Shown: positions 1-23,017, numbered from the stretch's first letter. The stretch: 64,000 nt of DNA from an uncultured virus (IMG/VR IMGVR_UViG_3300037088_000381) (IMGVR_UViG_3300037088_000381), one strand, 5' to 3'. A program made the numbers and translations. Notes: generated from the letters alone by a model not told the origin.

Positions 1-200
1 AAAAAACTTCCTGAAAATGAAATTGTAGACTTCCTTTTTCTTTAATAGTACAAGCGACAAGCAATCAAGCAATAAAAAAACTTCCTGAAAATGAAATTGT
101 AGACTTCCTTTTTCTTTAATAGTACAAGCGACAAGCAATCAAGCAATAAAAAAACTTCCTGAAAATGAAATTGTAGACTTCCTTTTTCTTTAATAGTACA
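1..200 (+). repeat. Tandem repeat, 74-bp unit, about 2.7 copies visible (may extend left of the window)
   Basis: CTTCCTGAAAATGAAATTGTAGACTTCCTTTTTCTTTAATAGTACAA starts at 7, 81 and 155; the copies are identical. Confidence 0.95.
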
Positions 201-235
201 AAACAAACAACAAACATTTAACGAAAGGTTTTATC

Positions 236-649
236 ATGTTTACACACAATTTTTCCGACTATGATTCTAGCGACACACTAACTAGACATAGTGACGTTCA
301 AAACCAGACAGAAGTTTTAACAATGCAAGGTCAAGGCATAGCAGTCAACAAAAAATTAAACACCAGAACAATTTTTATCGGTGGTCGAAAGCAAACAATC
401 ACAGCACAACAATACAATAACATACAAGCAAGATTAAAAGCCCGTGAAGAATTTACGAAAGATTTAAAACGAGAAACACCTTGTTTGTTCGGCGGTCGAA
501 ACAATCTGGCCAAAGTAACCAAGTCAAATTTTTCAAGCCCGGCAGGAAAAGACTTGTCGAAGGTTGAAACACGACACGCCATAAGAGAAGGTCTGGCCGG
601 GTCCCGTAAAGAGCAAATCGAAAAGCAATGGTCAAATCTAACCAAGTAA
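236..649 (+). CDS. Hypothetical basic protein
   Basis: 137-aa ORF with GAAAGG RBS, followed by a terminator. Confidence 0.7.
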   Translation: MFTHNFSDYDSSDTLTRHSDVQNQTEVLTMQGQGIAVNKKLNTRTIFIGGRKQTITAQQYNNIQARLKAREEFTKDLKRETPCLFGGRNNLAKVTKSNFSSPAGKDLSKVETRHAIREGLAGSRKEQIEKQWSNLTK

Positions 650-655
650 TTATAT

Positions 656-698
656 AAGCCCACGTCTAGACCTAGGTCTGGCGTGGGCTTTTTTATTT
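656..698 (+). terminator. Rho-independent terminator
   Basis: AAGCCCACG...CGTGGGCTT stem followed by a T-tract. Confidence 0.85.
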
Positions 699-881
699 AA
701 AGCAAACATAAAGGAGTCATTCCCCATGAAAAAGCAAAAACGATATACGCTTGAAGAAATCTACCAGACAGCATTAAAAGTAATTGGGCTTATAGTCGTA
801 ATAGCTTTTATGTGTGGATCTATGATTATACTTTTTGAAATTGCCATAGGAGTCATTAAACTTTAAAGAAAGGTGTCCATC

Positions 882-1376
882 ATGAACATCACGTACAATG
901 GCCAGACTGTCGAAGTCAATTCCGATCACGTTACAATCAATCTGTCTAGCACTGGCGGTCTAGAAATTAAGGCAATCAATAAGCCCGTCCATACCGAAGT
1001 CGTCCATCAAGTTATCAATACCGCTCCATTAACCCAGACAGTTCGGTCTGGAAATGGGCACAAAAGTTTGAAGGTCAGAGGTCTGGACGATGCCGAGAGA
1101 GATAAAATCCGACGTTTCTTTCTGGCGTACAATGGGGAGATTAAACCAGATGCTTGTGTCAGTCTGCATAAGACCATGAGTCCCGATCTGGCAATATTCC
1201 AGATAACAGGATTCGTGACCTACCTTCATGGGGAATGCCGAAAAGGTCTGGTTCCACTCCGTAACTATGCACGGTACGAAACTTATTTGCAATCGCATAG
1301 GGATCAATGGGCAACATACAATTCACCGAAGTACGTTTCCATGAGAGCTAAGAATCTAGACCCCATCTTTATCTAA
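882..1376 (+). CDS. Hypothetical protein carrying an unnamed ~90-aa domain (paralog of 1615..2157 and of the C-terminal half of 61154..62560)
   Basis: RBS GAAAGG; ATG at 882; manual alignment with the paralogs. Confidence 0.8.
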   Translation: MNITYNGQTVEVNSDHVTINLSSTGGLEIKAINKPVHTEVVHQVINTAPLTQTVRSGNGHKSLKVRGLDDAERDKIRRFFLAYNGEIKPDACVSLHKTMSPDLAIFQITGFVTYLHGECRKGLVPLRNYARYETYLQSHRDQWATYNSPKYVSMRAKNLDPIFI

Positions 1377-1511
1377 CCGCACAAGTAGTGATAACATCCA
1401 AGTACCCCTAACCAGTCTGGAGGATAGTATGTAGTGTGCTAGACGTCCAGGTAAATTCAGCACTCCCGACACCGGGAGCCGTTTAACCCAAGGAGTCGTA
1501 CCATGAATTAT

Positions 1512-1580
1512 TAAGGTGACGGCAGTCTCCCTCAGTCTGGGAGACTGTAAACCACAGTCCCAGTCCGAAGTCTGGGACGT
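1512..1580 (+). repeat. Structured intergenic element, copy 1 (two hairpins)
   Basis: TAAGGTGACGGCA-[stem]-TGTAAACCACAGTCCCAGTCCGAAGTCTGGGACGT, repeated at 2155-2234. Confidence 0.85.
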
Positions 1581-1614
1581 TTATCTACACACAATTTCTC
1601 AAAGGAGTCGTATC

Positions 1615-2157
1615 ATGAATCACACAATCACCATCAATGGCCAGACCATCACTGTTCCAGAAGGTATGTCCGTCAATCTCGTTGCAGGTGGAATCCAAAT
1701 CGTCCCGATCAATGCACCGACACATAAGACCGTTCGAGTACCCTTCGGTCAGAAGGTCGATACCAAGAAACTGTCTGGCGAAGTCAAATCCTCGACCAAG
1801 GCCAAGTCTGGGAAAGAGAAAAAGGTCTATGACAAGGACAATCCGTTCCTCACCAAAGAACAAATGGCCGCAATCAAGTCCTTCTTCCTCGCCAAAGATG
1901 GCCGAGTAACCAAGGGCGATGCCGATACCCTTGCCCCACAAATCGGTCTGGCAAAGGATGAGGCCGGTAAAATTGGATACCGCTTCAACCAAATGCGAAA
2001 AGCCGTATGTTACGGTTCAATCATCGTGAAAGACCAGGACGCCTTCGTGAAGAATCTCCAGACCGAAGGAAGCTACATCGCTAAGATGTTCTTTGACCCA
2101 AAAGTCATGGAAGCCCGTATCGCAAAACTTGCCGAAGCTGAATCGGTAAAATCGTAA
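1615..2157 (+). CDS. Hypothetical protein, paralog of 882..1376
   Basis: AAAGGAG RBS before ATG 1615; N-terminal TINGQT...VNL..GGIQI matches TYNGQT...INL...GGLEI. Confidence 0.8.
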   Translation: MNHTITINGQTITVPEGMSVNLVAGGIQIVPINAPTHKTVRVPFGQKVDTKKLSGEVKSSTKAKSGKEKKVYDKDNPFLTKEQMAAIKSFFLAKDGRVTKGDADTLAPQIGLAKDEAGKIGYRFNQMRKAVCYGSIIVKDQDAFVKNLQTEGSYIAKMFFDPKVMEARIAKLAEAESVKS

Positions 2158-2234
2158 GGTGACGGCACTCCCCCAGAGACTCCCAGGAGTCTGGGGGAGT
2201 GTAAACCACAGTCCCAGTCCGAAGTCTGGGACGT
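2155..2234 (+). repeat. Structured intergenic element, copy 2
   Basis: Same flanks as copy 1; the first stem differs in sequence but keeps its pairing. Confidence 0.85.
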
Positions 2235-2264
2235 AATCCAATAAACTTTTTAAAGGGAGGCTCT

Positions 2265-2627
2265 ATGAGCAAGGTACGTATCTTTCAAACCATCAACCGT
2301 ACAATTTCCGTCAAGCCTGGTCAAATCTATGCAGGAATGTCCGTTGAAGCATCTCAGGAAGCCCGACGCCTTGAGCAACGTAAGATCATAGGGGAACGTA
2401 TCAAGACGCTCAAGAACCTTACCTATGACACCCTTGCAGGTCAATACGTACCACAAGGTCGTGCCAAATGCCTGGATATATACAAAGACGGTCTGGAAAA
2501 GATTCGAGACCTAGGAAGAAAAGGAGGAGCCGATTACGACCACCTATTAACAGCACTGAAGTATACATGGGATTCAAAGGAAAATTTCCAAGAAGTCGAA
2601 ATGATCCTTACAGGACGAAACCTCTAA
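2265..2627 (+). CDS. Hypothetical protein
   Basis: GGAGG RBS, 120 aa. Confidence 0.7.
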   Translation: MSKVRIFQTINRTISVKPGQIYAGMSVEASQEARRLEQRKIIGERIKTLKNLTYDTLAGQYVPQGRAKCLDIYKDGLEKIRDLGRKGGADYDHLLTALKYTWDSKENFQEVEMILTGRNL

Positions 2628-2724
2628 CCACAAGGGGAAACATAATGGACCCATTCACCACTTCCTTCTTGACCATGATCCTTGGTTGTATGTTCTTTGG
2701 TATCCTCCAAGGATAATCTTTTAA

Positions 2725-2758
2725 TTAAGAGGGTATAGTTTATATACCCTCTTATTTC
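2725..2758 (+). terminator. Hairpin, probable terminator
   Basis: TAAGAGGGTATA...TATACCCTCTTA inverted repeat followed by Ts. Confidence 0.6.
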
Positions 2759-2776
2759 TCTTTAAAGGAGTCCACT

Positions 2777-2989
2777 ATGAAGAAACTCGGTACACTTGCA
2801 CAAATCAAAGGCACAGAACTCAGATTCTTACTGGCCGAATCATCAGTAAAAGCCGCCGTCCCTGGTATATGCACTAATGATGGTTGCAGCTACACCAGTG
2901 ACGTCGAACCCGATCAAGCCCAAGGATATTGTGAAGTATGTAAAACCCAAACAGTCTCCTCCTGCCTCGTTCTTGCAGGAGTTATTTAA
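2777..2989 (+). CDS. Small Cys-rich (Zn-ribbon-like) hypothetical protein
   Basis: AAGGAG RBS; CxxxxC and CxxC motifs. Confidence 0.7.
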   Translation: MKKLGTLAQIKGTELRFLLAESSVKAAVPGICTNDGCSYTSDVEPDQAQGYCEVCKTQTVSSCLVLAGVI

Positions 2990-3047
2990 ACGGTCTGGCC
3001 CAGAGATTCTCTGGGCCTCTTCCCCCACCATAAAGAAGGGATTATCT

Positions 3048-3566
3048 ATGAACTGGAAATCATCACTAGCAAAACGATGTTTACCTTTAAACATCGAACC
3101 TACAGTGGAAGATACCAAAAACAAAGTAACCTTCTACTGTCCTATCGAACCTAAAGGCGTAGACAAAGCTAACCTTCTTAGAATCCTTCCCATGACCTGG
3201 GCATACGATTTTCAAATCTCTCCCAAGCCACAAACAATATTAGACCTCAGAAAGTTTCTCGAAAGGGAAGAAGGATTCAACCTTACATCGTCAATTTTAG
3301 ATAACCCCAAAATTCACTTGCCCGAAACAGTCGAACCAAGAACCTTACGAGATATTAACAACCTCCTTGCAAGTGATGGTTATTATCAATACTGGTCTAT
3401 CTTTATAGGTGATAATGAAACCCCGTACTTCTTAAAGGATGAACAGATAAGATTAAAGATGGACAAAGAAGTCAAACGAGATACACCTATAAATCAGGAT
3501 GATATTCTGAACCTCACTATCATGCTCGAAACTATGGACGTAAACGAATTTATCAACAGCTTATAA
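3048..3566 (+). CDS. Hypothetical protein
   Basis: Probable start MNWKSS within ORF 2877..3566. Confidence 0.6.
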   Translation: MNWKSSLAKRCLPLNIEPTVEDTKNKVTFYCPIEPKGVDKANLLRILPMTWAYDFQISPKPQTILDLRKFLEREEGFNLTSSILDNPKIHLPETVEPRTLRDINNLLASDGYYQYWSIFIGDNETPYFLKDEQIRLKMDKEVKRDTPINQDDILNLTIMLETMDVNEFINSL

Positions 3567-3582
3567 TAAAGGAGGCACTACC

Positions 3583-3798
3583 ATGTTGGAAGAACTCGAA
3601 ACCGAAGCCAATAAGATAGACTCCAGTCGTCTCACCTTACTAACTACCCAGGAACTCCAGACCCTCCTTGCCTATGCCTACTGGAAGGATGGTTGTGATG
3701 ATAAAGAATTCCTTACCATGATAAAAGATAATACAGAAGGATCTTCTTCCCAAGAGATGACTAATATCCTCCATCAACAATTCGGATACAGCCTATGA
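3583..3798 (+). CDS. Hypothetical protein
   Basis: AAGGAGG RBS. Confidence 0.65.
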   Translation: MLEELETEANKIDSSRLTLLTTQELQTLLAYAYWKDGCDDKEFLTMIKDNTEGSSSQEMTNILHQQFGYSL

Positions 3799-4058
3799 GT
3801 GAAACCTTACAGACTACAGGTAAAGTTTCATTCAAAAGATACCAGTGCAAAGATTGCGGTAACATAGTCGAACTCTCCACCAATCACTACGGAGAAATCT
3901 ACCCAACGTGTAGAAAATGCGGATGGAAACACCCCGACAGTCTGGGACAGGTACACACCTGTCTGGAACCTGTCCCGTCTGGATGGTCTGTCCCGAAACC
4001 CTGGACAAGTATAAAACTCAATGACCTGATTAAAATATTAGGTTGCACACACCATTAA
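3795..4058 (+). CDS. Zn-ribbon hypothetical protein
   Basis: CKDC and CRKC motifs; ATGA overlap with the upstream ORF. Confidence 0.7.
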   Translation: MSETLQTTGKVSFKRYQCKDCGNIVELSTNHYGEIYPTCRKCGWKHPDSLGQVHTCLEPVPSGWSVPKPWTSIKLNDLIKILGCTHH

Positions 4059-4071
4059 GAAGGAGTATCAC

Positions 4072-4761
4072 ATGGCCAATGTATGCAATTGTTATTTCGA
4101 AATCACTGGCCCTACAAATCAAATACAAGACCTCGGTAATAAAATCAAGACCCAGGACCCAGGTCTGGTAGGGATAGGATCTCCCAATGAAACCCCCAGA
4201 CCCATCTTCTACTGGTTCGGTGAATCTAATAACAGAAGATGCTACGGTCTGGTAGACAGTCCAGAGGACATTTTCTTAGAAGACCAGTTCATCGGTCTGG
4301 ATCTCTGCACACCCTGGAGCCCACAACACGATGACATAATATACCTATCCAAAGCTTATCCCGATTGCCTGTTCCGAGTCAGGTACGAAGAGTCTGGTTG
4401 TGAAATGTATGGCATTTCCTCCTACCTTAATGGAATACTTTCCGAACAAGTGGATATGTCCCAAGAAACTTACCTGGATAACTATGATGAAGAATACAAT
4501 GAAGCTGTAGCTTCAATTGAGGATGTGGATTATGAAAGCTTCCTCAAGAATATCCACCTCATAGATACCTTGGAAGATGATCCTGAAACTTGCAGGTATC
4601 CCGGTCTGGTAGAAAAGCAGTATCTTAAAAGATTATTAGATAAACATCTCCCCTTACTCCTCGCTCATAAATGGTTAAGTAAAACAAACCAAGATACATT
4701 TGAGCGACGTCTTAAAGGGGAACCTAAACCCTTAGCTAAGTCAGCAGAATGGACAGAATAA
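4072..4761 (+). CDS. YubB/DUF1281-like ferredoxin-fold protein with C-terminal LPLL tag
   Basis: N-terminal MANVC.C...I.G and TPWSP...LSK.YP...F...YEE.G motifs. Confidence 0.6.
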   Translation: MANVCNCYFEITGPTNQIQDLGNKIKTQDPGLVGIGSPNETPRPIFYWFGESNNRRCYGLVDSPEDIFLEDQFIGLDLCTPWSPQHDDIIYLSKAYPDCLFRVRYEESGCEMYGISSYLNGILSEQVDMSQETYLDNYDEEYNEAVASIEDVDYESFLKNIHLIDTLEDDPETCRYPGLVEKQYLKRLLDKHLPLLLAHKWLSKTNQDTFERRLKGEPKPLAKSAEWTE

Positions 4762-4762
4762 T

Positions 4763-5035
4763 ATGACCGAAGTAGAACATGAAATTAATACAGCCTCAAT
4801 TATAGGAACCCCGTACAAGGTTATCCTATTCAACGATGATGACCATGATATGCTCCAAGTAACCAATCAAATATCCAAGGCCATTTCCTGTGATGATACC
4901 AAAGCATATCTTATTATGCTCGAAGCTCACAAGAACGGTAGAGCAATAGTCTATACAGGAAGCCGTGAAAAATGCGAACACGTAGAAACAATACTGGCCG
5001 AGATAAGGTTGGGAACTAAGATCGAACCTGCATAA
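4763..5035 (+). CDS. clpS: ATP-dependent Clp protease adaptor ClpS
   Basis: YKVILFNDDDH, A..IMLEAH..GRA.V..G..E..E signature. Confidence 0.9.
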   Translation: MTEVEHEINTASIIGTPYKVILFNDDDHDMLQVTNQISKAISCDDTKAYLIMLEAHKNGRAIVYTGSREKCEHVETILAEIRLGTKIEPA

Positions 5036-5093
5036 GACTACCCTATCAAAAGTAGATTGCTTATAATCTATTAATAGACCAGTAAAAGACTCT

Positions 5094-5121
5094 GTTAACT
5101 CAAAAATAAATTTGAGTTAAC
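5094..5121. promoter_or_regulatory. 28-bp palindromic site, copy 1 (GTTAACTCAAA-N6-TTTGAGTTAAC)
   Basis: Perfect 11-bp arms; five copies in the window. Confidence 0.85.
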
Positions 5122-5143
5122 CAATTTCTCGAAAGGACTCTCT

Positions 5144-5569
5144 ATGAAGACAGATAAACCTAGTATCAATGTAATCGTTACCCGGTCTGGCCAGTTCAGG
5201 GCACGTATAGATGTACCCAATGAACCTCCCTATGAAGTAACCGTAGGTGGTGTTATGTGGAAACTAGGTAAAGGAAAAGAATATAAAGATGCCATACTAG
5301 CAAGATGCCTTCTCATTACACAAAGATTAATTGCTACCCTCATGATAGAAGCTACTAAAAATCCCGGTCTGGTAACCCTTCCAGAAAAACACAATTGCTT
5401 AACATGCAGTGTCCAGGGCAGTACAACTCAAAAATGTTGTCGTGAGTGTGTTGATTTTTCAAACTGGTGTCCCAGTCTGGAGGTAACCCCCTCGATTTCT
5501 GGCCCGATTCCAGAGGACGGGAACGAGAAATCTATACCCAAGAATGATTCAACCGCCATTTTCCCTTAG
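5144..5569 (+). CDS. Hypothetical protein with Cys cluster
   Basis: GAAAGG RBS, 141 aa. Confidence 0.6.
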   Translation: MKTDKPSINVIVTRSGQFRARIDVPNEPPYEVTVGGVMWKLGKGKEYKDAILARCLLITQRLIATLMIEATKNPGLVTLPEKHNCLTCSVQGSTTQKCCRECVDFSNWCPSLEVTPSISGPIPEDGNEKSIPKNDSTAIFP

Positions 5570-5688
5570 TGAAACGCAAGACCAAGGCCTCGGTATGGGA
5601 AAAATATATCTCAGAAAGGTCTGGTTCGAGACTGGATCTCGGTCTGGGTCATTGCTCATAGCATTTCAATTTCTCAGATTAATACCCA

Positions 5689-5716
5689 GTTAACTCAAAA
5701 ATATTTTTGAGTTAAC
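5689..5716. promoter_or_regulatory. 28-bp palindromic site, copy 2
   Basis: GTTAACTCAAA AATATT TTTGAGTTAAC. Confidence 0.85.
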
Positions 5717-6107
5717 GAATTTCATTTCCATTACAAGGCCCAGAAAATCGGGGATCAATACTAATATTTTGGAAGTCACTTTCCAGAATCAAGACCGAGA
5801 ACTGGGCACTTTTTCTGGGTGAAACATATTTTCATTATTTTACCCTTGAAGATTCCCAGGTCCCGGCCTTGATGAGAGTATGGTAAGTAGTATGGGAGAG
5901 TATTAGGTAGTGTAATTGGATTATGTGATCTGGAAATGAGATTGTAATAGATATAACGAAAGGATAACATGAGTAGCCATAGTAAGAGCAATGGAATCTA
6001 TATCTCTTGGAAATATATAATCCTATTAGCCTTGATCTTCTTCCTTCCAAGTCCTTGGAAGTGGGTATTGATAGCAGTAGCTATAGGAATGATACTACTA
6101 AGGGATG

Positions 6108-6135
6108 GTTAACTCAAAAAAATATTTGAGTTAAC
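6108..6135. promoter_or_regulatory. 28-bp palindromic site, copy 3
   Basis: GTTAACTCAAA AAAATA TTTGAGTTAAC. Confidence 0.85.
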
Positions 6136-6167
6136 TTCTATATAGGGAGTAATAGAAGTAATAGTTG

Positions 6168-6195
6168 GTTAACTCAAAAAAGATTTTGAGTTAAC
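6168..6195. promoter_or_regulatory. 28-bp palindromic site, copy 4
   Basis: GTTAACTCAAA AAAGAT TTTGAGTTAAC, 60 bp after copy 3. Confidence 0.85.
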
Positions 6196-6304
6196 AGGAA
6201 TAGTGTTACAGCCGTAAAAAGTGAAAAAGTATGTCTGTCAAAAAAGTTGGGTGTGATATTAAAAATTAAACGGAGCGCCCAGAAAGTAGAAAGAGAAATA
6301 CCCT

Positions 6305-9040
6305 ATGCACAATAAACCAGTACCAGTGAAGTATCTAAGACCTAACAAGGAAGGATATTCAGTGAGGATATACCAGGCATTACCGCCTAACTACCCAAGG
6401 ACTATAGAGCCATTGGGTAAGAATGTATTGCTCTGTATGGAGCATAAGGAGCGGATGACTTACATAGCATCTATTAATGTGTGGGCATGTCCACACTGTA
6501 CTAATGGAGGTATAAACATAGCATCGGTTCCCAGGGCCTTGGCTCTGGAGCAGTGTGATATAGTTGCTTAAAGTAATAGGTAATAAGGAGGGAAGGAATA
6601 TGGCTAAGTATTTAGTTAGTGTACAGAAGTGTATGTATAGTACAGGTAAGGTTGAAGTTGAGGCGGATAATGAAGTGGATGCGATTGATGATGTACAGGA
6701 GAGGATTAATAAGGGGGAGTTACAGACGACGGGAGTTGAGTGGGGAGATATGGTGTATGAGGATTGTTCATTTGGTACGACGGGGGATGTAGACTAACCT
6801 TTATAAAGTAGGGGAGGTGTTCTATGGTAAGTGTAAGTTATGTAGAGTCACCAGTAGCGGTTAAGTTTTGTACTACGGCGATGGAGAAGAAACCTGAGAC
6901 GGATAACACACGGTTACTTGAGAAGGTCTGGAGTAAGGTTCCGTTGAGTAGGGAAGAGAAGGATAGGGTTGCTTCGATACTGTATGGGACGTTTAGTAGT
7001 CATACATCTACGTATAAGTTAATGGGATGGGCATGGGTGATGTCGTATAGTTTGAAGCGTATCCTTGTGTCGTTCACCTATGATGAGGGGGTATTTAGGA
7101 CGTTTTATGCACCAGATAAGACCTCCTTACGGAAGGTATTGAGTAGTGTAGCAGAGATGATAGAGCCTAAGCAGGAGGTTCTATGAAGTATGTAGTGATA
7201 GTTTATGGAGTATCGATGTTTGATAGTGAGGATGAGTTAGTAGCTGGGAGGTATGCTACGTTATTAAAGGAGTCAGGTTGGAAGGGTGTCTCTATAAAGG
7301 AGGAAACACTATGAGGAACATAGAGAAGTTATCGTGGGGAGATTTTATAAAGCAGTATGATGAGAGTGTTCGTAAGCAGATAGCGGAGTATAGGAATCGT
7401 CCCGGAGTGTCTGGGGTAGCGACTTTGAAGTGTGAGGTAATGGATTCGAGTAGGTTTGGAACTGAGACTGCTTTGATCTATGGGCCTGGTTGTACGTATA
7501 AGACTTTGGATGACATGGTACGTAAGCAGGGTGGAATGGGGATATACATAACGGGTTCACCATCATCGGCGTCTTTTGTGTATAATCATACGGAGGATAA
7601 GCCGTTATGAAGACAGGGCGTGGTGTAGTAGAGAAGGTTGTTAATGGTGATCTATTGGGCTACCTTGTAACGATACCTTCTGATGGGATGTATTTCTTAC
7701 GTAATGGGGATATAACGGATAAGGATGTAGGTAAGAAGGTATTGGTGGACTATGAGCCTGGTCATTTTCTTTGCACGTTTGTTTCCCGAACGGAGGGTTA
7801 ATATGAAGAGGAGTAGAGCCATAACAAAGGATAGGAAGCTAACCTTTGTCGATCAGATAATTGTTCAGGATGAGATAAAGACATTGATGAACAGTTGTGT
7901 TGAGGGTTATGATGGTACGTGGGATTGTACGACTGATGAAGGACGTGAAGGATTTAAGGCGATGTATTATGGTCTGGAGAAGATGGCGAAGCGGTTGAAG
8001 GTGGATGGTACGTTGGATGTGAAGCCTATATGAGTGGGGAAGTTAAGACGGTGCTTGAAGCTTTATCGTTTGCCCGTGACCAGATCAGGTCTGAGAATGA
8101 CCTAATGAGGACTGTAGGGTTGGTGATGTTGGATAGGATTATATTAGAATTGGGATCTGGTAAGTGTGTACGGGACAAGATTGATTTCAACACGTAGGGA
8201 GGGACGCCATGAAGAAGAGGGGAGAAGGGGTAGTAGTTAGGACTGTAGGTAGTGACATCTATGATTATGCGGTGTCGATGGATGAGGGGAACTTCCTTAT
8301 AACGAACGGGGATGAGGAAATTCGGGAAGAGGATATAGGTAAGCGTATCATCGTGAACTATGAACCTGAGTGGCCTTGTTGCCAGTTTGTATGCTTCTAC
8401 AGTGAAGATAAGAAGGAGCCAGAGGTTGACTCTTGTGATAATTGTGTTGAGAGATTAACAGGAGTAGCTGGTTCATCGTGTGATGGTTGTCCCAAGAGGA
8501 TATAAGTAATCACTTTTATCGAAAGGTATATAAGATGAAAGCAATTATTGGTTGGTGTTGTACGATTGTGGTGTTTGTGTTTGTCCTGATGTTGTTTATT
8601 GATAACAAGTACAACCACAAGATGCAGGGTCATGTGTCTCTGGCATGTAGTCAGGCGTCGAAGGAAGCTTCGATAGAGGCGACTAATGTTAAGCGGAAGT
8701 TTATTAACTTCATAGATAAGAAAAAGTAGTAATTTATTTCGGCGGGTTAATAATATATAAAGGGTACTGGATGGCCGGTATCCTTTTCATTTAACAAGGA
8801 GTGTTACCCATGCCAACAATAGTACAAGACCACAAGAAGAACTTCGAGACGTTAAAGAAAGCATTTAAGAATGGTGCTGTATGTTTGATGGATTGTGTTG
8901 AGAAGTGTAGTGGGGAACACGTAGCGGTTATATGTACTTCGATGCCTCAAGAGGATGGAGGGATGGTATTTGTTCCCTTTGCTCGATTCTTTAATGGTAA
9001 TCCATACAGTCAGTTGATACCACCAGGGGATAACACATGA
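6305..9040 (+). other. Cluster of short hypothetical CDSs (6305, ~6600, 6824, ~7311, 7607, ~7803, 8209, ~8535, ~8810)
   Basis: Tightly packed plus-strand ORFs, most with GGAG RBS; 7607..7801 and 8209..8505 are paralogs. Confidence 0.65.
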
Positions 9041-9208
9041 AGACTCTGATTAAGTTAGCGGTTTACTTTCTTTCTCGAATATTATACATCTTGTTTGGGT
9101 TACTTGCCTTGGGCATTGCCATTGTTTCATTTATATTAATTAGGTTGAAGACTCTATAGTCGTTGGCAGTATGCTTTCTGTTTAATAATTTCCCAGTAAT
9201 CTACCGTG

Positions 9209-9236
9209 GTTAACTCAAAATAAAATTTGAGTTAAC
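9209..9236. promoter_or_regulatory. 28-bp palindromic site, copy 5
   Basis: GTTAACTCAAA ATAAAA TTTGAGTTAAC, just upstream of the RBS of 9260. Confidence 0.85.
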
Positions 9237-9259
9237 CTATTTCATATAAGGAGGTCTTT

Positions 9260-12200
9260 ATGGTTCGTCGTATCCTGGATGTAGTAGAAGTTGAAACAAG
9301 GAAACCTTTCCATAGTCTTAAAGGTAATGGTACATGGAACGTATTGGAATTGTTTCCTAAGCGAGAGCTTCAGTATCTTGCAAAGATATGTAGGCTTCCC
9401 CGGTCTGGGACTCGGTCGGACATAATTAGTCGGTTATGTGTCTTTCATCAGAGTCGTTATGGTGGTTTGCGTATGAAGGTAACATTAAGATAAGGAGTAG
9501 ATATGCGGATATGTTTATTGGTTTTAATATCCTTTGTAGTAGTGTATGGAGGACAGCCTTGGTATCAGGAGTATGTAGAAGCTTCACAATCAATGATGCG
9601 GTGGTTAATGTTTCCTTGGGGGTTTTTAATTATCCTTGGGTTAGCTGTGTTGTTAATAACGAAGATCATTAAGTATGGGTATAAGATTATAGGTAGCTTC
9701 TTCAGGGATGGTATGTAATGAAACAGTATCCAAGGTTTTATGGGGACGAGAGTATTAGAACTGTGACACTCTCTGGAAGTTCTAAGGATCGACGTAAGCA
9801 ACTAAGGAAGTTATGCAAGGACAATCCAGACTGCAAGGTCACACTTCATGCTCCTATAGTTATGAAGACTCTTAATGGTGAGAGGGTTGAATGTGATGAG
9901 GCCAATGTAGTGAGGACTCAGGTACGGATAACGAAAGAAATAAGGAATGATAAGGAGGAGAATGATATATAACACTGTTCATATAAATCCTACAAAGGTA
10001 TCAAAGCATAAGGAATCGTGGGAGGTTAGTATAGATAAGAGCAACAAAATGGATCGAGAGGACACTAAAACCTTACCAAATCCTTTAGGGTTCTACCATT
10101 ACCCAGAGGCTATGAGTGAGCGAGAAGCTACTGAGACTCTTATAAAGGTTATGGTTGGTAGGCATGAAGAGGAGATAGCCAGGCTTACTGTATCTAAAAA
10201 TGCCTTATTACTTTTATTAAGCGAGGTAATTAATGATAAGGAGGGTTAGATGAATGTAGTAAATGCTGATAGAAGTAACAACGTGGAAATTGTTCCAGAG
10301 AAATGGCCTGGGTATTCTATAGAAAAGAAGTCTAGGTTTCTGCCTCCTCTAAGTTCTTTGCTTGAGAGGATTGCCAAGCACTCTGGACGTGGTGAGTATG
10401 CTGAAAATCTTAAGAGGGGTATCCATAGGAAGTTTAAGTACCTATTAGATGAATGTCTCTGCAATGACTCTATAGCGAGTATGTGTGATGATGAGGGTAA
10501 GCCAAGTATGGATAAAGCTTTTGTTATTCTTGGTAAGGCTTACATACGGTTAAACGTAATCGACGAGATCAACAAGTCAATCAATGAAGCTTTGAACAGT
10601 ATCTATGTAACACATTGGAGCAAGGAGCTCTGGGATCTAAGGCAGGTCTGCATCGAGCAGAAGAGACTTGCTGAGGAGTTGGTTCGATCCATATACTATC
10701 ATAAGGAGAAAGAGAATGAGAAATCAATTCCAGAAGTTAGTGTCCCAGGGTGAGGATGCCCGTGATAAGTTAAGGGAAGCAATCAATAACCTTCCCGAGA
10801 CGTCTGGGGTAACTAAGTTGGGTAATAACTGTGTGACTGTACCTCTGAGTCTCCTAAGTGGGCATAACAATTGGAGTCCTTCTTATTGGATCTCTAAGGA
10901 AACGAAGCAGTTGCTTTTGAATGTAGTTGATTCCAAGAGGCCCGTGGACGGGTTCATTAAGGCGATGGATGAGATTATTAAGACTGGATGTGTGATAGAG
11001 CCTAAAGCAAGTTGTTACACGAGTGCTGGGCCTAAGATTCGTATTGCTCCTAATGTATTGGAGGAGTTAAAGAAGGTCTGGAATTGTTTAGGCTGTACGG
11101 ATTACGGTAAAGAGAAGTTACCTGCAAATGAGTCTCAGTGTTTAATATGTAATCGTTTTTACGGGGATAGATACAGACAATAACCTTTTAAATGGGAGAA
11201 GTAATATGAAAATTTTGAATGGTATCCTTTTAATGAGTCCACTTGTACTATGGATAATTGTTCGTTGTGTTGCGAGTTTGAATTTCAGTGTTGATTGTGG
11301 GGGTCATATAAAAAGGGCTGCTGATGCGAATACGATTGAGCTTGCAGCTCAGGAGCTTAGGACGGTGATAACTTATTGTGATGAGCATAAACTTACGTCT
11401 GGGGTGGTGTCTATAATAATAAAGCAACCGAAGAATGATGTAGGTTTTTGGTATACAAATCTTAAGGCATCGCTTACGGAGTTAGATAAGGTGACAGAAA
11501 CTACGTCACAGCTTGAGAAGACTAACATACTTATAAAATTACGGGAGACTTTGGTGGATCATGGTCAGTCTGGGATGAGTATAACTGTACCTGATGGTAT
11601 AACAATTTACCCACACAATGTAATGTATTTTTGGTGGGCAGTAATTGGGACGTTATTAGCGTGTGTCGGTGCTGGTTTAGTCTATCAACATCTTAGTGAA
11701 TGGTAGTTTGATAATCCTTACTATGGAGGTTAGGAGTAATCATGAAACACATACTCGAAGAGTTAGCCGAAGTAGCTAAGAGTAATCTCATAGAGAATGG
11801 ATACATAGCTTCGGTTATGTTTTGGTTTAAAGGCAATCAAATGATGAGGCCCATGCTCTTCAAGGACTTTGATGATTGTAATGGTGATGATATTAACACT
11901 CGGAATGCTTTTGTAGCGGGTATCATGTCGAATAAAATGGGGGCTGACTTGGTTGTGTTACTAACCGATGCAGCTTTCAGACATATCACCGATGGAAAGA
12001 TACCTTCCTCTCCAGAGGAGCAACCTTTATCCTATCCCAGATCGATGCGAACGGAATGTATAGTTATTATTGGTATCAAGGTTCCATCTGGTGAGTCTGA
12101 TGTGATGATGGTTCCTTATAAGGGTGGAGAAGGTGAGCCTGTAGAATTTATTCCTAATGAACTACCTAAAGAAGCTAAGTTTGAGACTCGGTTCTCGGAC

Positions 12201-12976
12201 TTGGTTGTTCAAGGGTGGAAGAAGGCGAGTATGTTTCCTAGCATCGAGGCAATGAACTAAGGAGTATATCATGTCAGATAATTGTGCTGATTGTGGAAGT
12301 CACAAAATTTATCCCGACCCAGACCCGAGCGATTGGTTCTGTGATGATGATGTGAAGGTAAGGTGTGAAGCAAACGGCCAGATGATAACCGTTGGTTGTC
12401 GGCCTCATCGTGTAAGGCAGGAGTGTGAGACTCCTGAATGGTGTCCCAAGAAAGCGAAAGCAGTAAAGGTAGTTGAAGAAAGTATGAATGAGTATACAAT
12501 CGTTGGCATTTATGCTGATGTTCAACAACTTGGATCGCTCAAGTAGTATCAAGTGATCCTACCAATGCGGCCATTAAAGGAATAGAAAAGATACATGCTG
12601 CTGATAGTGTGGAAATAGAAGACATATTTGTTGTGGGTATTCTTAAAGGTCACGTTGAGATGGCCTTAATCACGGATAAGATTCTCAACTTATGGGGTCT
12701 TAATGCTCTGGCCAAGAAGGAGGGTACATGATAATCAATGTTGCACACAAGAAAAAGAATCAGATTACGGTAGACATAAGGTGCAATCAGATACGTTATG
12801 TACATGACGTTCAAGGACATGGGAAGATAGAGTTCAATGATATATCCCAGACGACTTCCGAGTGTTACCAGTATCTCTTTGAGAACAACAAGGACTCCTT
12901 CCTTGAGAGTCTGGCAGAGGAGATGTCCGACTTCTTAATGAAGGGGATCAACACGAAAGACTTGGTGATAGTATGA
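9260..12976 (+). other. Cluster of hypothetical CDSs (9260, 9503, 9718, 9947, 10250, ~10716, 11206 membrane protein, 11742, 12271, 12728)
   Basis: Contiguous ORFs with RBS or overlapping stop/start codons. Confidence 0.65.
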
Positions 12977-13383
12977 ATCGAGCAAAACTTTATGCCTATT
13001 ATCTGGAGAAGGCTGCTCATATAAACTGCATGATTGATTTGATAAACAAACTTCCTTTGTGTTCCGAGAAGAGTCCTGATAAGATCATTCGATTCCGTGT
13101 TACATACCGTACTATAAACGATTGTTATGTAGGTGATCTGTTAGCAATCCCCAGACGATTCAATACCGAGTCCCTTATTATAGATGCAGTGGCGGGAGAT
13201 GATGCCTACCCTTTATATCGTGTTCCTCTTGGAGATACTAATGAAGGGCGTATATGTTTAAAGTTTAGGGACATTGTTTCTTGGGAAGAGTTTCAAGATA
13301 TTAACTTACCCTTGTACATTACTAAACAGATAAAGACCTTCTACCTAGAGAAAGCTTTTAAAAGAGTTCAGAAAGGTAATTGA
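12973..13383 (+). CDS. Hypothetical protein with C-terminal LPLY tag
   Basis: ...DINLPLYITKQIKTFYLEKAFK. Confidence 0.7.
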   Translation: MNRAKLYAYYLEKAAHINCMIDLINKLPLCSEKSPDKIIRFRVTYRTINDCYVGDLLAIPRRFNTESLIIDAVAGDDAYPLYRVPLGDTNEGRICLKFRDIVSWEEFQDINLPLYITKQIKTFYLEKAFKRVQKGN

Positions 13384-13497
13384 TATGGATGTATCACCCT
13401 GTTGCAATAAGGATATGGAGAAAATAAAACTATCAGTATATAAATGTCCTGGCTGTGGTAAAGAATGGCAACGGACTTTTGACCCAGACCTGAACAA

Positions 13498-13893
13498 ATG
13501 GGGATGGAAGGAGTTCAAATGATTGAAATGACTGTATGGCATAACAATAACTTCCTGAAGTATGCTTTTGATAACTACACGACCATGAGTCAGTACCGGG
13601 TCCTGGGCCAGACTTCGGCGGTTAAAGTAGCCGAAGTTAAATCTGATTGTTTAGCTCAAGCGTACGAGCTTACGAATAACATTGACCGTCCTTGGACTGA
13701 GAACTCTGGAGTAAGATCGTTTGGGGATGGCAGGTCGATACGATCTACTTCAGTAGGGGATATTATATATACTCCATCTGAGACTTCCAATCTGGAGCGT
13801 GAAGGGTATTATGTGGTGGAGAATTTTGGATTCAGGTGGATAAGTAATCCTGTAGAACTTAAAAAGATAACATTTCTCCAGGCTTTAGTATGA
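13498..13893 (+). CDS. YodL-like domain protein
   Basis: RSTSVGDII...YYVV..FGF motif. Confidence 0.55.
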   Translation: MGMEGVQMIEMTVWHNNNFLKYAFDNYTTMSQYRVLGQTSAVKVAEVKSDCLAQAYELTNNIDRPWTENSGVRSFGDGRSIRSTSVGDIIYTPSETSNLEREGYYVVENFGFRWISNPVELKKITFLQALV

Positions 13894-14298
13894 ATCTAAA
13901 CGAACAACAGAAGGCCAAGCGTAAAGAAGTTTTGACGACGATGGTTAAACAATATAAAGAAAGTCACCCTTGGCTTACTACACGACAGGCTGTTTATGAA
14001 GTAGGAGAGATACTTGAAAATGATCCTGTTCAACTACGGATCATCAATGCTTTATCAGCGAGTGCTACAATAGAAGGGAGTATCAATGTTAAAGATCATC
14101 TGCTTATACAGTAGTCCAGTAATGTGGTTCACGCTCTGGTTGGTTCTTCTCTTTATCTTTGGCGCTATTCTAAAGCGAATGTTTCCAAAGATTAAAGATC
14201 ATATATACTTCGGAACTGTTGGAGTCATTACAGCAATGCTTATAATAAGTGTTGTCATTACATACAGCCAGTTACTCTTTAGCGAATAGGGAGGATAG

Positions 14299-15420
14299 AT
14301 GAGCATAGTAAGATCGGTTGATCTTTCTTTCTGTGAGGGGTCAAGCGATAAAGAATACCACATGCAGATCATCAACGGCAATGGTGGTATGTTTACCCTC
14401 AATTGCCAATGGGGTCGAAGAGGTTCCACTCTCCAGAGCCAGGGCAAGGTTGTAGATGTACCCTTAGCTAAGGCTGAAGCGACCTATCAAAAGGTATTGG
14501 ATGAGAAACTTGGTAAGGGTTATCAACTCGATCTTGAATCGGGTTCAACCTACGTAACTCCAGAGGATAAGAAGGCCCCTGTGAAAACTAAGATGGATAC
14601 CACGGGGGAACTCAAACGTAAGATCCAGATTGACTGGGGTGATGAAGAGAAACTTATCCCCCAACTCCTTAACCCCATAGAAGAAAGTGAGGTTGAAAAG
14701 TATCTCAAGGATGGTGAGTGGGGAGCACAGGAAAAGAAAGACGGCAAGCACCAGATGCTTCGGTACATTGATGCCAAGCTAACCGCCTTCAATAAGAAGG
14801 GCAAAGAGGTTGGCTATCCCAAGGTCTGGGCCGACGCCTTATGCACTCCCGTTCTCTTGGACGGGGAAGCAATTGGTGATACCTTTCATGCCTTCGACAT
14901 ACTGGAAAGGTCCGGTAAAGATTATCGGAAGTTGAAATACATTACTCGACATGCCGAGTTAACGACTGTGGAGTTCGGTGAGTCTATCAAGATTGTTCCT
15001 TTAGCTATGGGCTACAAGGATAAGAAAGCTTTATACGATCAGCTCCTCAAGGATGGTAAGGAAGGGGTAGTATTTAAGAAGCTATCCTCAGAACATAAGC
15101 CAGGCCGTCCTGCGTCTGGTGGAGACATGGTTAAGTTTAAGTTCTATTCCACGGCCTCGGTTCGAGTAGTGAAGGGTAGAGAAGGTAAGCGGTCGATAGG
15201 TATGGAGATTCTGGATGGAAGTAAGTGGATCTTCATTGGTAACTGTACGATACCTCCCAATAAGGAAGTCCCGAAGCTCGGGGACATAGTTGAGATACGG
15301 TATCTTAATTACCAGGAAGGTGGGGCATTGTATCAACCTACGTACTTGGAAGTACGAGATGATACGGACCCAGAGGACTGTGTAAAGGCTCAATTAAAAT
15401 ATAAAGTCGTAGAAGAATAA
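14299..15420 (+). CDS. WGR-domain ATP-dependent DNA ligase
   Basis: N-terminal SDKEY...QWGRRG...EKLGKGY (WGR); QEKKDG motif I, LLDGE, AFDIL, EGVVFK, KFKF; OB-fold EIRY...LYQP.Y...RDD. Confidence 0.85.
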   Translation: MSIVRSVDLSFCEGSSDKEYHMQIINGNGGMFTLNCQWGRRGSTLQSQGKVVDVPLAKAEATYQKVLDEKLGKGYQLDLESGSTYVTPEDKKAPVKTKMDTTGELKRKIQIDWGDEEKLIPQLLNPIEESEVEKYLKDGEWGAQEKKDGKHQMLRYIDAKLTAFNKKGKEVGYPKVWADALCTPVLLDGEAIGDTFHAFDILERSGKDYRKLKYITRHAELTTVEFGESIKIVPLAMGYKDKKALYDQLLKDGKEGVVFKKLSSEHKPGRPASGGDMVKFKFYSTASVRVVKGREGKRSIGMEILDGSKWIFIGNCTIPPNKEVPKLGDIVEIRYLNYQEGGALYQPTYLEVRDDTDPEDCVKAQLKYKVVEE

Positions 15421-15433
15421 CATTGGAGGTCTA

Positions 15434-15820
15434 ATGTTTAAAAGCAATCGTAGTGGGTTCACTCTTATACAGTTGTTGGTTGTGTTAGTTTTCTTTGCCA
15501 TCATTGGTTCTGTTGTCTATGGGTATGGGCAGAAATTCTTTTCCAGATCCGAGCATGTCGGGGTGGTAAAGAATGTAGCTTCGATGACACCCAATGCAGT
15601 TATCGGCCATGTCAGTCAGGGTTATTATTCCTTCTCCATAGATATGGAGTGTGAGGGTAGTGAAATTGTTTCATTCTCTTCGGAGGATAGGAAGTTCTCT
15701 ACGGTTAATAAGGGTGATTCAATTCGGGTTGTTACTTTTACATATCCTTTTTGGAGCTTAGATAAGGCGGGTACGTTATACGGTGGTAGGTTGATTAAAA
15801 AATATAAGCTTGGACAATAA
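15434..15820 (+). CDS. Prepilin-type (class III signal peptide) protein
   Basis: KSNRSG|FTLIQLLVVLVFFAIIG; Gln in place of Glu at +5. Confidence 0.7.
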   Translation: MFKSNRSGFTLIQLLVVLVFFAIIGSVVYGYGQKFFSRSEHVGVVKNVASMTPNAVIGHVSQGYYSFSIDMECEGSEIVSFSSEDRKFSTVNKGDSIRVVTFTYPFWSLDKAGTLYGGRLIKKYKLGQ

Positions 15821-15837
15821 TTATTTCGACGGCCTTG

Positions 15838-15870
15838 GGGAGTGATAGAGTATCATCACTCCCTTTCTTT
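15838..15870 (+). terminator. Hairpin, probable terminator
   Basis: GGGAGTGAT...ATCACTCCC followed by TTTCTTT. Confidence 0.6.
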
Positions 15871-15887
15871 ATCCAGGAGGATACAAC

Positions 15888-16373
15888 ATGCCCAGAGCAA
15901 ACACACCAGCAAAACAAATGGGGTCTATCAAGTCAACACCAGAGCCTAAATTTAAAATAGGTCAGAAAGTTTTAATAGACTATAGGCATCCTTCTGATAA
16001 ACCTTTCTTTGAACGAACATATCTCAGATATTTAATAAGAAAAGATCGAAAGATCCATAACCGCCTCCTTAAAGGAGGGTACATAAAAGGTAGCAAGCTT
16101 TCTGATGGGTGTAAGAATGAGATTAGAGAGTGCATTAAAAGACTTCGGGAAGCTACTGAAGTAGAGATCGTAGGAATTGTTCCTTGGAGTATGTACAACA
16201 TTGACTCAGTTCAGTTTAACGAATGTTATGTAGGAGGAGTCTCTGGGGCTTCGGCTCCAATGGAATACCATTATCAAATACTTATTCGATTTAAGAATGA
16301 CAAAGGTAATAACATTGCTTTAATAACTGGTTGTCCTGTTGGAAGTGCTAACAGTTTCAAGGAGGTACTATGA
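15888..16373 (+). CDS. Hypothetical protein
   Basis: AGGAGG RBS. Confidence 0.7.
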   Translation: MPRANTPAKQMGSIKSTPEPKFKIGQKVLIDYRHPSDKPFFERTYLRYLIRKDRKIHNRLLKGGYIKGSKLSDGCKNEIRECIKRLREATEVEIVGIVPWSMYNIDSVQFNECYVGGVSGASAPMEYHYQILIRFKNDKGNNIALITGCPVGSANSFKEVL

Positions 16374-16615
16374 TAGACGACACAGAAGAAACACGAAGAT
16401 TCTTAACATCTAAAATCAATTCAGTTCAAGCTCAACGAGAAGAGCTTGAGAAGAAGCACGGCCAGGTCTGGGACACGCAGGAGTTGACCCGAGACTTTAC
16501 CGTGAAAAGTTTCCTTGCTCCCTTTGTTTCTGTAGTAAGGAAAGCGGATGGAGTTCCTGGGGCGTTACTGTTTCAACATGATCCTAGATATTACTTTAAT
16601 TTTACGGAGGATTAA
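16370..16615 (+). CDS. Hypothetical protein
   Basis: AAGGAGG RBS; WDT.EL..DF.V..F.APFV.V.RK.DG..G.L.FQH.PRYYF. Confidence 0.7.
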   Translation: MIDDTEETRRFLTSKINSVQAQREELEKKHGQVWDTQELTRDFTVKSFLAPFVSVVRKADGVPGALLFQHDPRYYFNFTED

Positions 16616-16847
16616 TATGAGTTTTGATTCATACCAAATTAATAAAAGGCTTGAGGCTATTAAATCTCTCGATGATTATTACACACAAATAATGGACCTC
16701 AACAAGATGAGCCTTGTTTTATTTCTTGATGAGTTCAAGGAGTCATAATTTAAAAAGGACATTCAAGCAGCCCTCAAACCAATCATTGAAAAATACCAAA
16801 GCAAACTTAAAGAGGCTGTTAAAAAATTCGTATAAGGAGTAACGACT

Positions 16848-17294
16848 ATGGCTCTCAGTCAACAATTGAAAGCCTATATGTCTGAACTAAAAACAGACCT
16901 CAAGGCTTCCAAAGAACAACTTAGTATTTATAGGCAGATAAGAAAAGGAACATTGGTCTATGCCGAACACTTACATATCAATACAGCCAGAGACGGCGTA
17001 GGTGGATGGCACTCCTCTTACAAGCCAGCTCTTTTAAAGTATAGAGACTGGAATTACTGTGAGGAAGGTTTTGCATTAGAGTTCGATGTGATAGCTTCAC
17101 AAGACTCTGAACCTTATAACCCACCATACCAACTTGAATACTCTGGTAGACAGGCCCAGATAAGAGGGCCCAAGTATTATATAGCTGACAAGATAAAGAT
17201 TATACCGCTTCTTAATCTGCCCCTGTTTCTTGATTACCCGTATAAGACTAGCTTGTTCGAGAAACTTTTCAAGGAGAATAAATGTTTGAAATAA
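16848..17294 (+). CDS. Hypothetical protein with C-terminal LPLF tag
   Basis: ...LNLPLFLDYPYKTSLFEKLFKE. Confidence 0.7.
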   Translation: MALSQQLKAYMSELKTDLKASKEQLSIYRQIRKGTLVYAEHLHINTARDGVGGWHSSYKPALLKYRDWNYCEEGFALEFDVIASQDSEPYNPPYQLEYSGRQAQIRGPKYYIADKIKIIPLLNLPLFLDYPYKTSLFEKLFKENKCLK

Positions 17295-19571: not shown

Positions 19572-19576
19572 ATATT

Positions 19577-21746: not shown

Positions 21747-21829
21747 TGCCCTTCTTCCTCAAATAAAGTATCAAGTTCTTTCATTCCAAGTACATATAAA
21801 ATAATATATATTTAAAAGGGGTTACACAA

Positions 21830-23003: not shown

Positions 23004-23017
23004 AATAGGGGTACACC

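Follow-up and report, generated by a model that had tools for sequence, protein, structure and literature searches.

The hexamer GTCTGG, as it occurs in the 64-kb stretch of DNA analyzed here (hereafter the window, meaning the whole stretch; uncultured virus, IMG/VR IMGVR_UViG_3300037088_000381), is a selected signal with a meaningful orientation, and an artefact of codon or dipeptide usage is excluded as its source. The word forms an array of 28 plus-strand copies between positions 591 and 5647, with the consensus CRGTCTGG, inside a module of 13-14 small genes of early type (236..5693, plus strand) that is characterized by strong AGGAG ribosome sites and a negative guanine-cytosine (GC) skew. 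This module is saturated with the word, which is under selection, is polar, falls in density by steps along the window and is conserved in a relative. Tentatively, we interpret CRGTCTGG as a set of Chi-like sites for an end-processing helicase-nuclease of the host, located in a terminal and possibly repeated early module.

Selection on GTCTGG in the early module

Both strands of the window together hold 77 copies of GTCTGG, as compared with a mean of 23.3 (standard deviation 5.2, maximum 39) in 100 dinucleotide shuffles, none of which reached 77. The plus strand of 591-5647 accounts for 28 copies and the minus strand for seven (eight when the whole of 1-5700 is considered), so that the rough figures of 28 and 7 given in an original prediction on this DNA proved to be exact; all 16 positions listed there were recovered, together with 12 more. 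About one copy had been expected on a plus strand poor in G, and this was borne out as well: order-1 and order-2 Markov models give 0.9 and 2.3 copies in 1-5700, respectively, and the GC skew of the module, -0.06 to -0.10, makes its plus strand G-poor. An order-3 model gives 9.4 copies, an expectation that already includes the 4-mers of GTCTGG itself. In a raw ranking of the hexamers of the module, GTCTGG comes first with its 28 copies, followed by the next non-overlapping word with 11.

The word is found in coding as well as intergenic DNA, as had been claimed, with 19 of the 28 plus-strand copies in coding sequence (4.6 kb) and nine in non-coding sequence (about 1.07 kb). By reading frame, the coding copies are distributed as 13 xGT-CTG-Gxx and six xxG-TCT-GGx, with none as GTC-TGG. 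Codon-aware nulls were computed for the 13 plus-strand genes in 236-5569, which are referred to as the module genes. Shuffling of synonymous codons, with proteins and codon usage kept, yielded 1.64 copies (standard deviation 1.16) and a maximum of six over 2000 shuffles, none of which reached the observed 19, and shuffling of codon order within genes gave a mean of 0.96. A codon-aware null had been named beforehand as the test on which the original prediction should stand or fall, and the enrichment persists under both versions of it. GTCTGG was also the top hexamer by synonymous-shuffle z-score (z = 14), the other top words being overlapping sub-words of it.

Another view of the same coding copies is given by the tripeptide contexts in which a synonymous choice could yield GTCTGG, here called permissive contexts. 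The module proteins use 19 out of 25 such contexts, against 1.7 expected, and the two copy-free genes at 3048-3566 and 3583-3798 offer one and zero contexts, respectively; it is for these two reasons that the module is called saturated. Two of the six unused contexts carry GTCTGG in the relative described below. The share of permissive codon contexts used, 76% here, provides a simple composition-free detector of such signals in metagenomic phage genomes, and the word itself is usable as a handle with which to fish for its reader.

A search for relatives was based on a palindrome found at the module border (see below). Scanning of metagenome contigs for this palindrome returned at least 112 stretches, with flanks for 80, and 115 loci were screened both for the density of the motif and, with 29 window proteins as queries, by tblastn. 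One true relative was found among the 115, a contig of 4540 bp (L074) with nine module proteins at 38-88% identity and DNA that is 78% identical over 3927 aligned columns. GTCTGG is again the commonest hexamer in this contig (22 plus-strand and three minus-strand copies). The contig has 15 permissive contexts, 12 of which carry the word where 0.96 would be expected, and its non-coding DNA (about 1.07 kb) accounts for 10 copies. In the well-aligned blocks (3213 columns, 82.5% identity) each of the two genomes has 14 copies, of which nine are shared (eight when counted from the other side), and with hexamers in general kept at 39.6% the retention of GTCTGG is only somewhat higher (binomial p = 0.055). 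Unshared sites are due to synonymous changes or inserted cassettes, e.g. TGC-CTG to TGT-CTG at 2469 and TGC-CTC-GTT to TGT-CTG-GTC at 2963. As the sites turn over between the window and its relative while saturation persists, what selection maintains is the density of GTCTGG and not the individual sites.

The preferred flanks are alike in the two genomes. Among the 28 plus-strand copies of the window, C occupies position -2 in 17, and position -1 is occupied by G in 16 and by A in nine; among the 22 of the relative, the corresponding numbers are 13 for C and 12 and six for G and A. Of the two forms that the resulting consensus CRGTCTGG takes, one is CAGTCTGG. Judged by eye and not by a statistical test, the gaps between copies are near random, with neither a fixed register nor an excess of short gaps, and the recurring gaps of 33-35 nt stem from duplicated cassettes and paralogues. 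In the paralogous genes 882-1376 and 1615-2157, two GTCTGG keep their spacing (35 and 33 nt, respectively) despite different phases and amino acids, the residues at these sites being R-S-G...G-L-D versus L-S-G...K-S-G.

Eight of the nine non-coding copies are located in or beside RNA-type structures of the plus strand. A terminator-like hairpin is found at copy 676 and another hairpin directly after 2993, while a long imperfect hairpin cassette with AGACC...GGTCT arms and G-U pairs at 5579..5645 includes copies 5619 and 5642. Two predicted Twister-P5 ribozymes (RF02684) lie at 1515..1575, between genes (48.0 bits; copies 1535 and 1570), and at 2158..2229 (46.7 bits; copies 2189 and 2224), and a third was found at 344-396 of the relative (45.4 bits), with an Rfam gathering score for this family of 37.6 bits. 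The three copies pass this threshold and have the stems of the family, their first stem varies with pairing kept, and GUCUGG stands where the family consensus has GCCCGG. Twister cleavage products have cyclic phosphate and 5'-OH ends, which are substrates of RtcB; along with the predicted ribozymes between its early genes, the element encodes an RtcB, i.e. a handler of such ends, at 17282-18601. The hairpin cassette at 5579-5645 is present twice in the relative, each time directly upstream of a palindrome, although this makes only three sequences in all.

Orientation and distribution along the window

On the minus strand of the module, eight copies were found (304..4201, with starts at 304, 764, 902, 1034, 1641, 2058, 3657 and 4196). 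Read as CCAGAC on the coding strand, the word uses eight out of 22 permissive contexts in 0-5.7 kb against 2.4 expected (Poisson p = 0.003), which is a smaller share than the 19 out of 25 of the plus orientation (Fisher p = 0.0085). Six of the eight minus-strand copies lie within the leftmost 2.1 kb, and minus copies are situated to the left of plus copies (one-sided Mann-Whitney p = 0.022). CCAGAC is enriched once more in 20-32 kb, where 10 out of 29 contexts are used against 2.3 expected (p = 0.00014) and where it is the top hexamer (11 versus 5). No more than one or two of the CCAGAC copies have a GTCTGG close by with which they pair.

All genes of the 0-5.7 and 5.7-37 kb stretches are on the plus strand, yet CCAGAC is also enriched there, and the word is consequently not simply following transcription. 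The claim that it follows the direction of transcription is contradicted by the CCAGAC figures for 0-5.7 and 20-32 kb. The signal acts on DNA; its direction matters, and both directions are of some value. The enrichment of CCAGAC on the same coding strand also favors a DNA-level signal read by direction over a signal in the transcript.

Counted on both strands, the density of the word is 6.3 per kb in 0-5.7 kb, then 1.43, 1.38 and 1.33 per kb in the stretches up to 32 kb, 0.40 per kb in 32-37 kb and 0.11 per kb in 37-64 kb. The decay with distance that had been predicted is therefore real, although it is stepwise and not smooth, with successive levels of 6.3, about 1.4 and 0.1 per kb. The same steps were followed by region in 113 plus-strand open reading frames (ORFs) out of 131 greedy ORF calls, with minus-strand ORFs excluded and with 1.1-1.7 used contexts expected from regional codon usage in every region. 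Plus-strand contexts used were 19 out of 25 in 0-5.7 kb, 8 out of 22 in 5.7-12 kb, 6 out of 21 in 12-20 kb, 4 out of 23 in 20-32 kb, 0 out of 32 in 32-48.3 kb and 1 out of 27 in 49.9-64 kb. In 37-64 kb three copies were found where about 8.7 are expected, a weak shortfall that is not relied on.

The second tier of the distribution (5701..37000) has 19 plus-strand and 19 minus-strand copies, i.e. about 1.2-1.4 per kb, or about four times the expectation. Within 5.7-37 kb the plus copies are located further left than the minus copies (Mann-Whitney p = 0.017), with 14 plus and six minus copies in 5.7-20 kb versus five plus and 13 minus copies in 20-37 kb (Fisher p = 0.022). The word had been said to stay on the plus strand past the switch in GC skew, and this holds for 5.7-12 kb, with eight plus copies and one minus copy, but not further on, where minus copies are as frequent or more so (six plus and five minus in 12-20 kb, five plus and 11 minus in 20-32 kb) and are themselves enriched.

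The first density step coincides with a gene-poor gap at 5.7-6.3 kb, with four copies of the palindrome and with a jump in GC skew, which is about -0.01 in 4-6 kb and +0.42 in 6-8 kb; gene direction is unchanged across the gap, and positive values of the skew continue as far as about 32 kb. In 6-12 kb, C is strongly under-represented on the coding strand. The palindrome, GTTAACTCAAA-N6-TTTGAGTTAAC, has five copies (5094-5121, 5689-5716, 6108-6135, 6168-6195 and 9209-9236), each 20-30 nt upstream of a ribosome site and four of them in the gene-poor module boundary where the skew switches. The copies sit at junctions where the relative has other or extra genes, and the palindrome looks like an operator/promoter cassette that doubles as a recombination joint for gene shuffling. 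An apparent alternative junction at 5128 was rejected, being the palindrome copy at 9.2 kb.

A Chi-like reading and the left edge of the module

The left edge of the window is occupied by three copies of a 74-bp tandem repeat (1..222, plus strand), of which the third is 78% alike and each unit of which contains ACTTCCT twice. Depth data were available from contigs only, in four peat runs from four studies (X1, X7, X8 and X9). In X1, the contig with the tandem repeat has a depth of 113.8 against 22.4 alongside, a fivefold difference from which it follows that the true array is longer than assembled and that the assembly breaks there. No contig in the four runs extends leftward past the start of the window. 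Position 1 is a contig break inside a tandem repeat, and this by itself does not establish it as a physical genome end. The depth in X1 implies that, per module, the 74-bp unit is about 5 times as numerous as a stretch of single copy; the array may represent tandem early promoters, iterons or a terminal feature.

Depth also distinguishes the module from what follows it. Between 172-5440 and 5411-8000, depth was 20.7-22.4 versus 12.4 in X1, 6.3-7.9 versus about 4 in X7 and about 4-5 versus at most 2.4 in X9, so that the module is about 1.7-2 times as deep as the downstream sequence in three of the four runs. A ratio near 2 is consistent with the collapse of a terminal direct repeat about 5.4-5.9 kb long.

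In the Chi-like reading, a host enzyme of the RecBCD/AddAB type would read CRGTCTGG on the unwound 3'-ended strand, and the element would pack the word at saturating density into its terminal early module, probably a terminal repeat. Upon entry at a free end, an enzyme would then meet a properly oriented copy within a few hundred bases, at which it would cease degradation and load RecA; early genes would be protected, and end-to-end recombination to a circle or concatemer would be promoted, as would recombination between the two terminal repeats. The majority of plus copies would face an enzyme moving leftward, e.g. one that has entered the right-end copy of the repeat, and the minority of minus copies, bunched in the leftmost 2 kb, would face an enzyme entering the left end. 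We infer, in other words, a helicase-nuclease as reader, a module that is terminal and repeated, and the end served by each orientation. We found no publication linking GTCTGG to bacteriophage, nor any joining Chi sites, terminal redundancy, phage and RecBCD.

Several observations agree with such a reader. The over-representation typical of Chi sites was found, with 28 copies against 0.9-2.3 in total and 19 against 1.64 in coding sequence, and the array adjoins the contig edge behind the tandem repeat. Both orientations are enriched, one far more than the other, as predicted for a signal read by an enzyme arriving from either side. Chi sites in a terminal repeat account for the sharp step at the module border, for the enrichment in both orientations and for the doubled depth.

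The original prediction of a Chi-like mimic protecting the first-injected end can be retained as far as a selected polar signal, densest at the left contig edge and in an early-type module, is concerned, whereas the orientation of the word does not fit protection of the left end. As to the kind of signal (polar, under selection, acting on DNA and located in an early module that is probably terminal) the interpretation is right; what is incomplete is its argument from orientation. According to PMC12315714, an enzyme has to enter from the right for a top-strand Chi to be active. By this rule the 28 plus copies protect the left end only if the active word is the bottom-strand 5'-CCAGAC-3' or if the module is repeated at the right end.

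Several points weigh against the Chi-like reading. First, if the left end is the one to enter first, the majority orientation is unsuited to protecting it, unless CCAGAC is the form that is read or a terminal repeat does exist. Known Chi words are G/T-rich and about 8 bases long, like CRGTCTGG, whereas CCAGAC is C-rich and unlike them. Second, Chi sites in a terminal repeat leave unexplained the approximately fourfold enrichment that continues through 6-32 kb, where no selection for end protection is expected given the 28 copies in the module, as well as the shift from plus to minus across the same region, which runs opposite to what entry from the left end would lead one to expect. Third, the plus copies are evenly spread in the module without a pile-up at either border (Kolmogorov-Smirnov test against uniform, p = 0.46). 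Fourth, 37-48.2 kb, which includes a cas operon, has no copies in either orientation where about 3.6 are expected, and if the host was the source of the cas genes, GTCTGG is not abundant in host DNA. A Chi word would be over-represented in the chromosome of its host and skewed there with replication. Lastly, with regard to depth, X8 is without a clear step, a mixture of strains sharing the module can equally yield a depth step, and in X7 the depth dips to 3.0 at 5040-5345, where the relative has a different gene.

The element, alternative readers and known systems

The sequence occurs in peat metagenomes of 12 studies, and by its gene content the element appears to be large, very novel and phage-like, with phage and plasmid both possible. 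Protein families were searched for in 104 (Pfam), 105 (PHROGs) and 69 (NCBIfam) proteins, and most of the 104 proteins scanned with Pfam were without a family match. Recognized proteins include ClpS, a WGR/LigD-like ligase, RtcB, a MoxR-like ATPase together with a DUF2201 protein, and a phosphoesterase; an FtsK motor, a protein with three helix-turn-helix (HTH) segments, a sigma-like protein and an AAA ATPase were matched in addition. ClpS (4763-5035, plus strand) and a DUF1281_C/Api92-like domain (4072-4761, plus strand) are the only family matches in the early module, whose first gene had no usable match in the protein atlas. Neither a phage structural gene nor a conjugation gene was recognized in the 64-kb window. 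An anti-RecBCD or recombinase family was likewise not found among the window proteins scanned with Pfam, PHROGs and NCBIfam, a weak negative since most of these proteins match nothing.

The WGR-domain protein, with a ligase domain of the LigD (end-joining) type, is encoded at 14299-15420, and a 468-aa protein at 61154-62560 has an extracytoplasmic function-type sigma domain just below the cut-off (40.3 versus 42.9 bits). A complete type I CRISPR-Cas operon extends over 40.4-48.2 kb (from 40448), with a large-subunit candidate, Cas7, Cas5, Cas3, a Cas6e-like protein, Cas1 and Cas2. It is accompanied by an array of about 25 repeats (GTCTTCCCCGCTTATGCGGGGATTGAAT) at 48.28-49.9 kb, of which the distal ones are degenerate. 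The 24-base core of the repeat (TTCCCCGCTTATGCGGGGATTGAA) had no exact match in 185,579 species genomes.

Searches for more distant kin returned little. With 1-8000 in distant mode and 30000-50000 in near mode, a DNA similarity search of 50,697 phage records gave no match, and neither did IMG/VR scans with the twister cassette, the palindrome, the protein at 4072-4761 or the protein at 23018-24322. A scan with the ligase returned a single record (G001; 467 kb, GC content about 46-55%), the ligase of which is 50% identical. GTCTGG is not in excess in this record as a whole (84 forward and 98 reverse copies versus 64 and 64 for the control), and no cluster was seen in the 61 kb examined. A genome scan with an alignment of the DUF1281-like protein gave one distant locus, at 28% identity, in a contig of a Muribaculaceae metagenome-assembled genome (L116), and GTCTGG is not in excess there either, with no copies on the plus strand and three on the minus strand. 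To judge from these two distant sharers of single genes, the word seems to be lineage-specific. The Muribaculaceae locus (10.8 kb) has a strand-biased word of its own, GGAGGCTCTA(TG), which occurs 12-20 times on one strand, with AGGCTCTA found 15 versus 2 times. This word resembles a fixed cassette of Shine-Dalgarno sequence plus start that precedes many small genes; the lineage is said to be independent of Shine-Dalgarno sites.

An alternative that deserves weight, doubtful as it is, is that the word is an address label or polar loading site for a DNA-handling protein of the element itself, i.e. a phage-owned analogue of the FtsK-orienting polar sequences (KOPS) and SpoIIIE recognition sequences (SRS). 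Conjectural readers would be a soluble FtsK motor together with the adjacent three-HTH protein, or else a protein, made early or carried in the virion, by which the entry-proximal 30-37 kb is coated or moved. In its broadest form, which we regard as possible without thinking it probable, CRGTCTGG would be not a host Chi but the label of a polar system owned by a clade of large phage-like elements, which marks the entry-proximal 30-37 kb plus the terminal module and decides on movement, protection or recombination. The polarity and saturating density of the word speak for this, as do the step-like domains that end at 32-37 kb and the FtsK gene itself. The latter (56317-57522, plus strand) encodes a genuine alpha-beta motor of 401 aa without a gamma or membrane domain (PDB 2IUU FtsK, E = 7.6e-98) and is followed after 4 nt by the gene for the 166-aa protein with three HTH segments (57526-58026, plus strand), for which a PDB sequence search gave nothing below E = 0.07. 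The two proteins may form a split translocase with a separate DNA-reading subunit, and this pair could conceivably be an element-encoded reader of GTCTGG. The absence of the word from the two distant single-gene sharers would also suit a lineage-specific reader, but it is equally expected of a host-specific Chi. The pair is furthermore encoded 50 kb from the array, with nothing connecting it to the word, and words of the KOPS type are found replicon-wide and converge on a resolution site, whereas the density peak here is far from the weak convergence zone at 12-20 kb. We also know of no phage precedent for a polar word owned by the element.

A role of GUCUGG in early transcripts, as a site for an RNA-binding protein or nuclease that sets stability, processing or translation, is unlikely. 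The 28 copies all belong to the sense strand of an operon running in one direction, which has two predicted twister ribozymes and long G-U hairpins that are possible only in the plus transcript. The location of eight of the nine non-coding copies in or by RNA structures, the ribozymes with GUCUGG in place of GCCCGG and the RtcB RNA ligase encoded at 17282 all fit such a role. An RNA signal gives no reason, however, for CCAGAC to be enriched on that coding strand as well (8 versus 2.4 and 10 versus 2.3), and hairpins fail to explain it, given that so few CCAGAC copies have a GTCTGG partner nearby. Among the 15 runs listed with the sequence, no RNA run was found.

Still less probable is a start site for primase, in which the plus copies would prime the lagging or complementary strand for rightward forks or for entry from the left end. 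GTCTGG does contain GTC (T7-type) and CTG (DnaG-type), its strand bias suits the lagging-strand template of a rightward fork, and the switch in GC skew at 5.7-6.3 kb, in an AT-rich palindromic gap, is a possible origin. Orientation does not flip at this switch, however (28 plus and eight minus copies to its left, eight plus copies and one minus copy to its right), and primase sites are needed replicon-wide, whereas only three copies are found in 37-64 kb. All six bases of the word are moreover fixed, while known primase sites specify 3-5 bases, and no primase was recognized among the scanned window proteins.

That the word is without function, its excess having arisen from duplication of cassettes, from the usage of codons or dipeptides or from composition, is very improbable, for although the two twister cassettes give four copies, the paralogues at 882-1376 and 1615-2157 give three each and the peptide P-G-L-V occurs four times, the shuffles give 1.64 and 0.96 against 19, 19 out of 25 contexts are used, non-coding DNA is enriched too and the relative is equally saturated at different sites. 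Three further candidates were rejected, namely a restriction or BREX-type target (such words are avoided, not enriched), pac or iteron arrays (which span a few hundred bases and not kilobases of coding DNA) and an integron attC site or other recombinase core.

Among known systems, the RNase III sites of T7 are comparable in that they too belong to a one-directional early operon at a genome end, with structured RNA between genes. They differ in that two of the elements here are predicted twister ribozymes and that two thirds of the hexamers are found inside coding sequence.

KOPS (GGGNAGGG, FtsK) and SRS (GAGAAGGG, SpoIIIE) are oriented words that direct a DNA translocase. GTCTGG resembles them as an oriented, over-represented word of about 8 bases, and the element encodes an FtsK alpha-beta motor. 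Its FtsK of 401 aa is, however, without a match to gamma, the winged-helix part that reads KOPS. KOPS are furthermore replicon-wide and converge on dif, whereas GTCTGG is concentrated in 5.7 kb, is nearly absent beyond 37 kb and is not purine-rich. To our knowledge, there are only two classes of short, polar and interchangeable words that are selected for number, Chi (RecBCD/AddAB) and KOPS/SRS (FtsK/SpoIIIE), and both are read by DNA translocases. Should the machinery of the element prove to read the word, this would be the first case of a phage owning a polar DNA word of the KOPS/Chi kind.

With respect to Chi, there is direct precedent among phages: PMC12315714 describes phage LLS (E. coli) with 23 Chi sites, 20 of them in the active orientation and clustered at the end entered by RecBCD, and phage MD8 (P. 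aeruginosa) with 32 sites in one orientation and none in the other; in phages, Chi abundance goes with the lack of an anti-RecBCD or own recombination module. LLS and MD8, which are lambdoid and without a recombination module, are like the present element in having an oriented word far above chance near one genome end, with sites within genes and selection on number over exact position. In LLS and MD8, on the other hand, the host is known, the word is its established Chi and genetic evidence of activity was obtained, whereas the word described here is a candidate. At 6-8 bases it is also the shorter word, and at 5 per kb its density is about 10 times as high; its opposite orientation is enriched too, and its majority is "inactive" relative to the nearest contig edge unless the other strand is read or a terminal repeat is present. 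If the word is nevertheless a Chi, CRGTCTGG would be a candidate Chi sequence for an uncultivated peat bacterium, and a large phage-like element would have pushed Chi density to the coding limit, extending the strategy of LLS, MD8 and P1 beyond enterobacteria.

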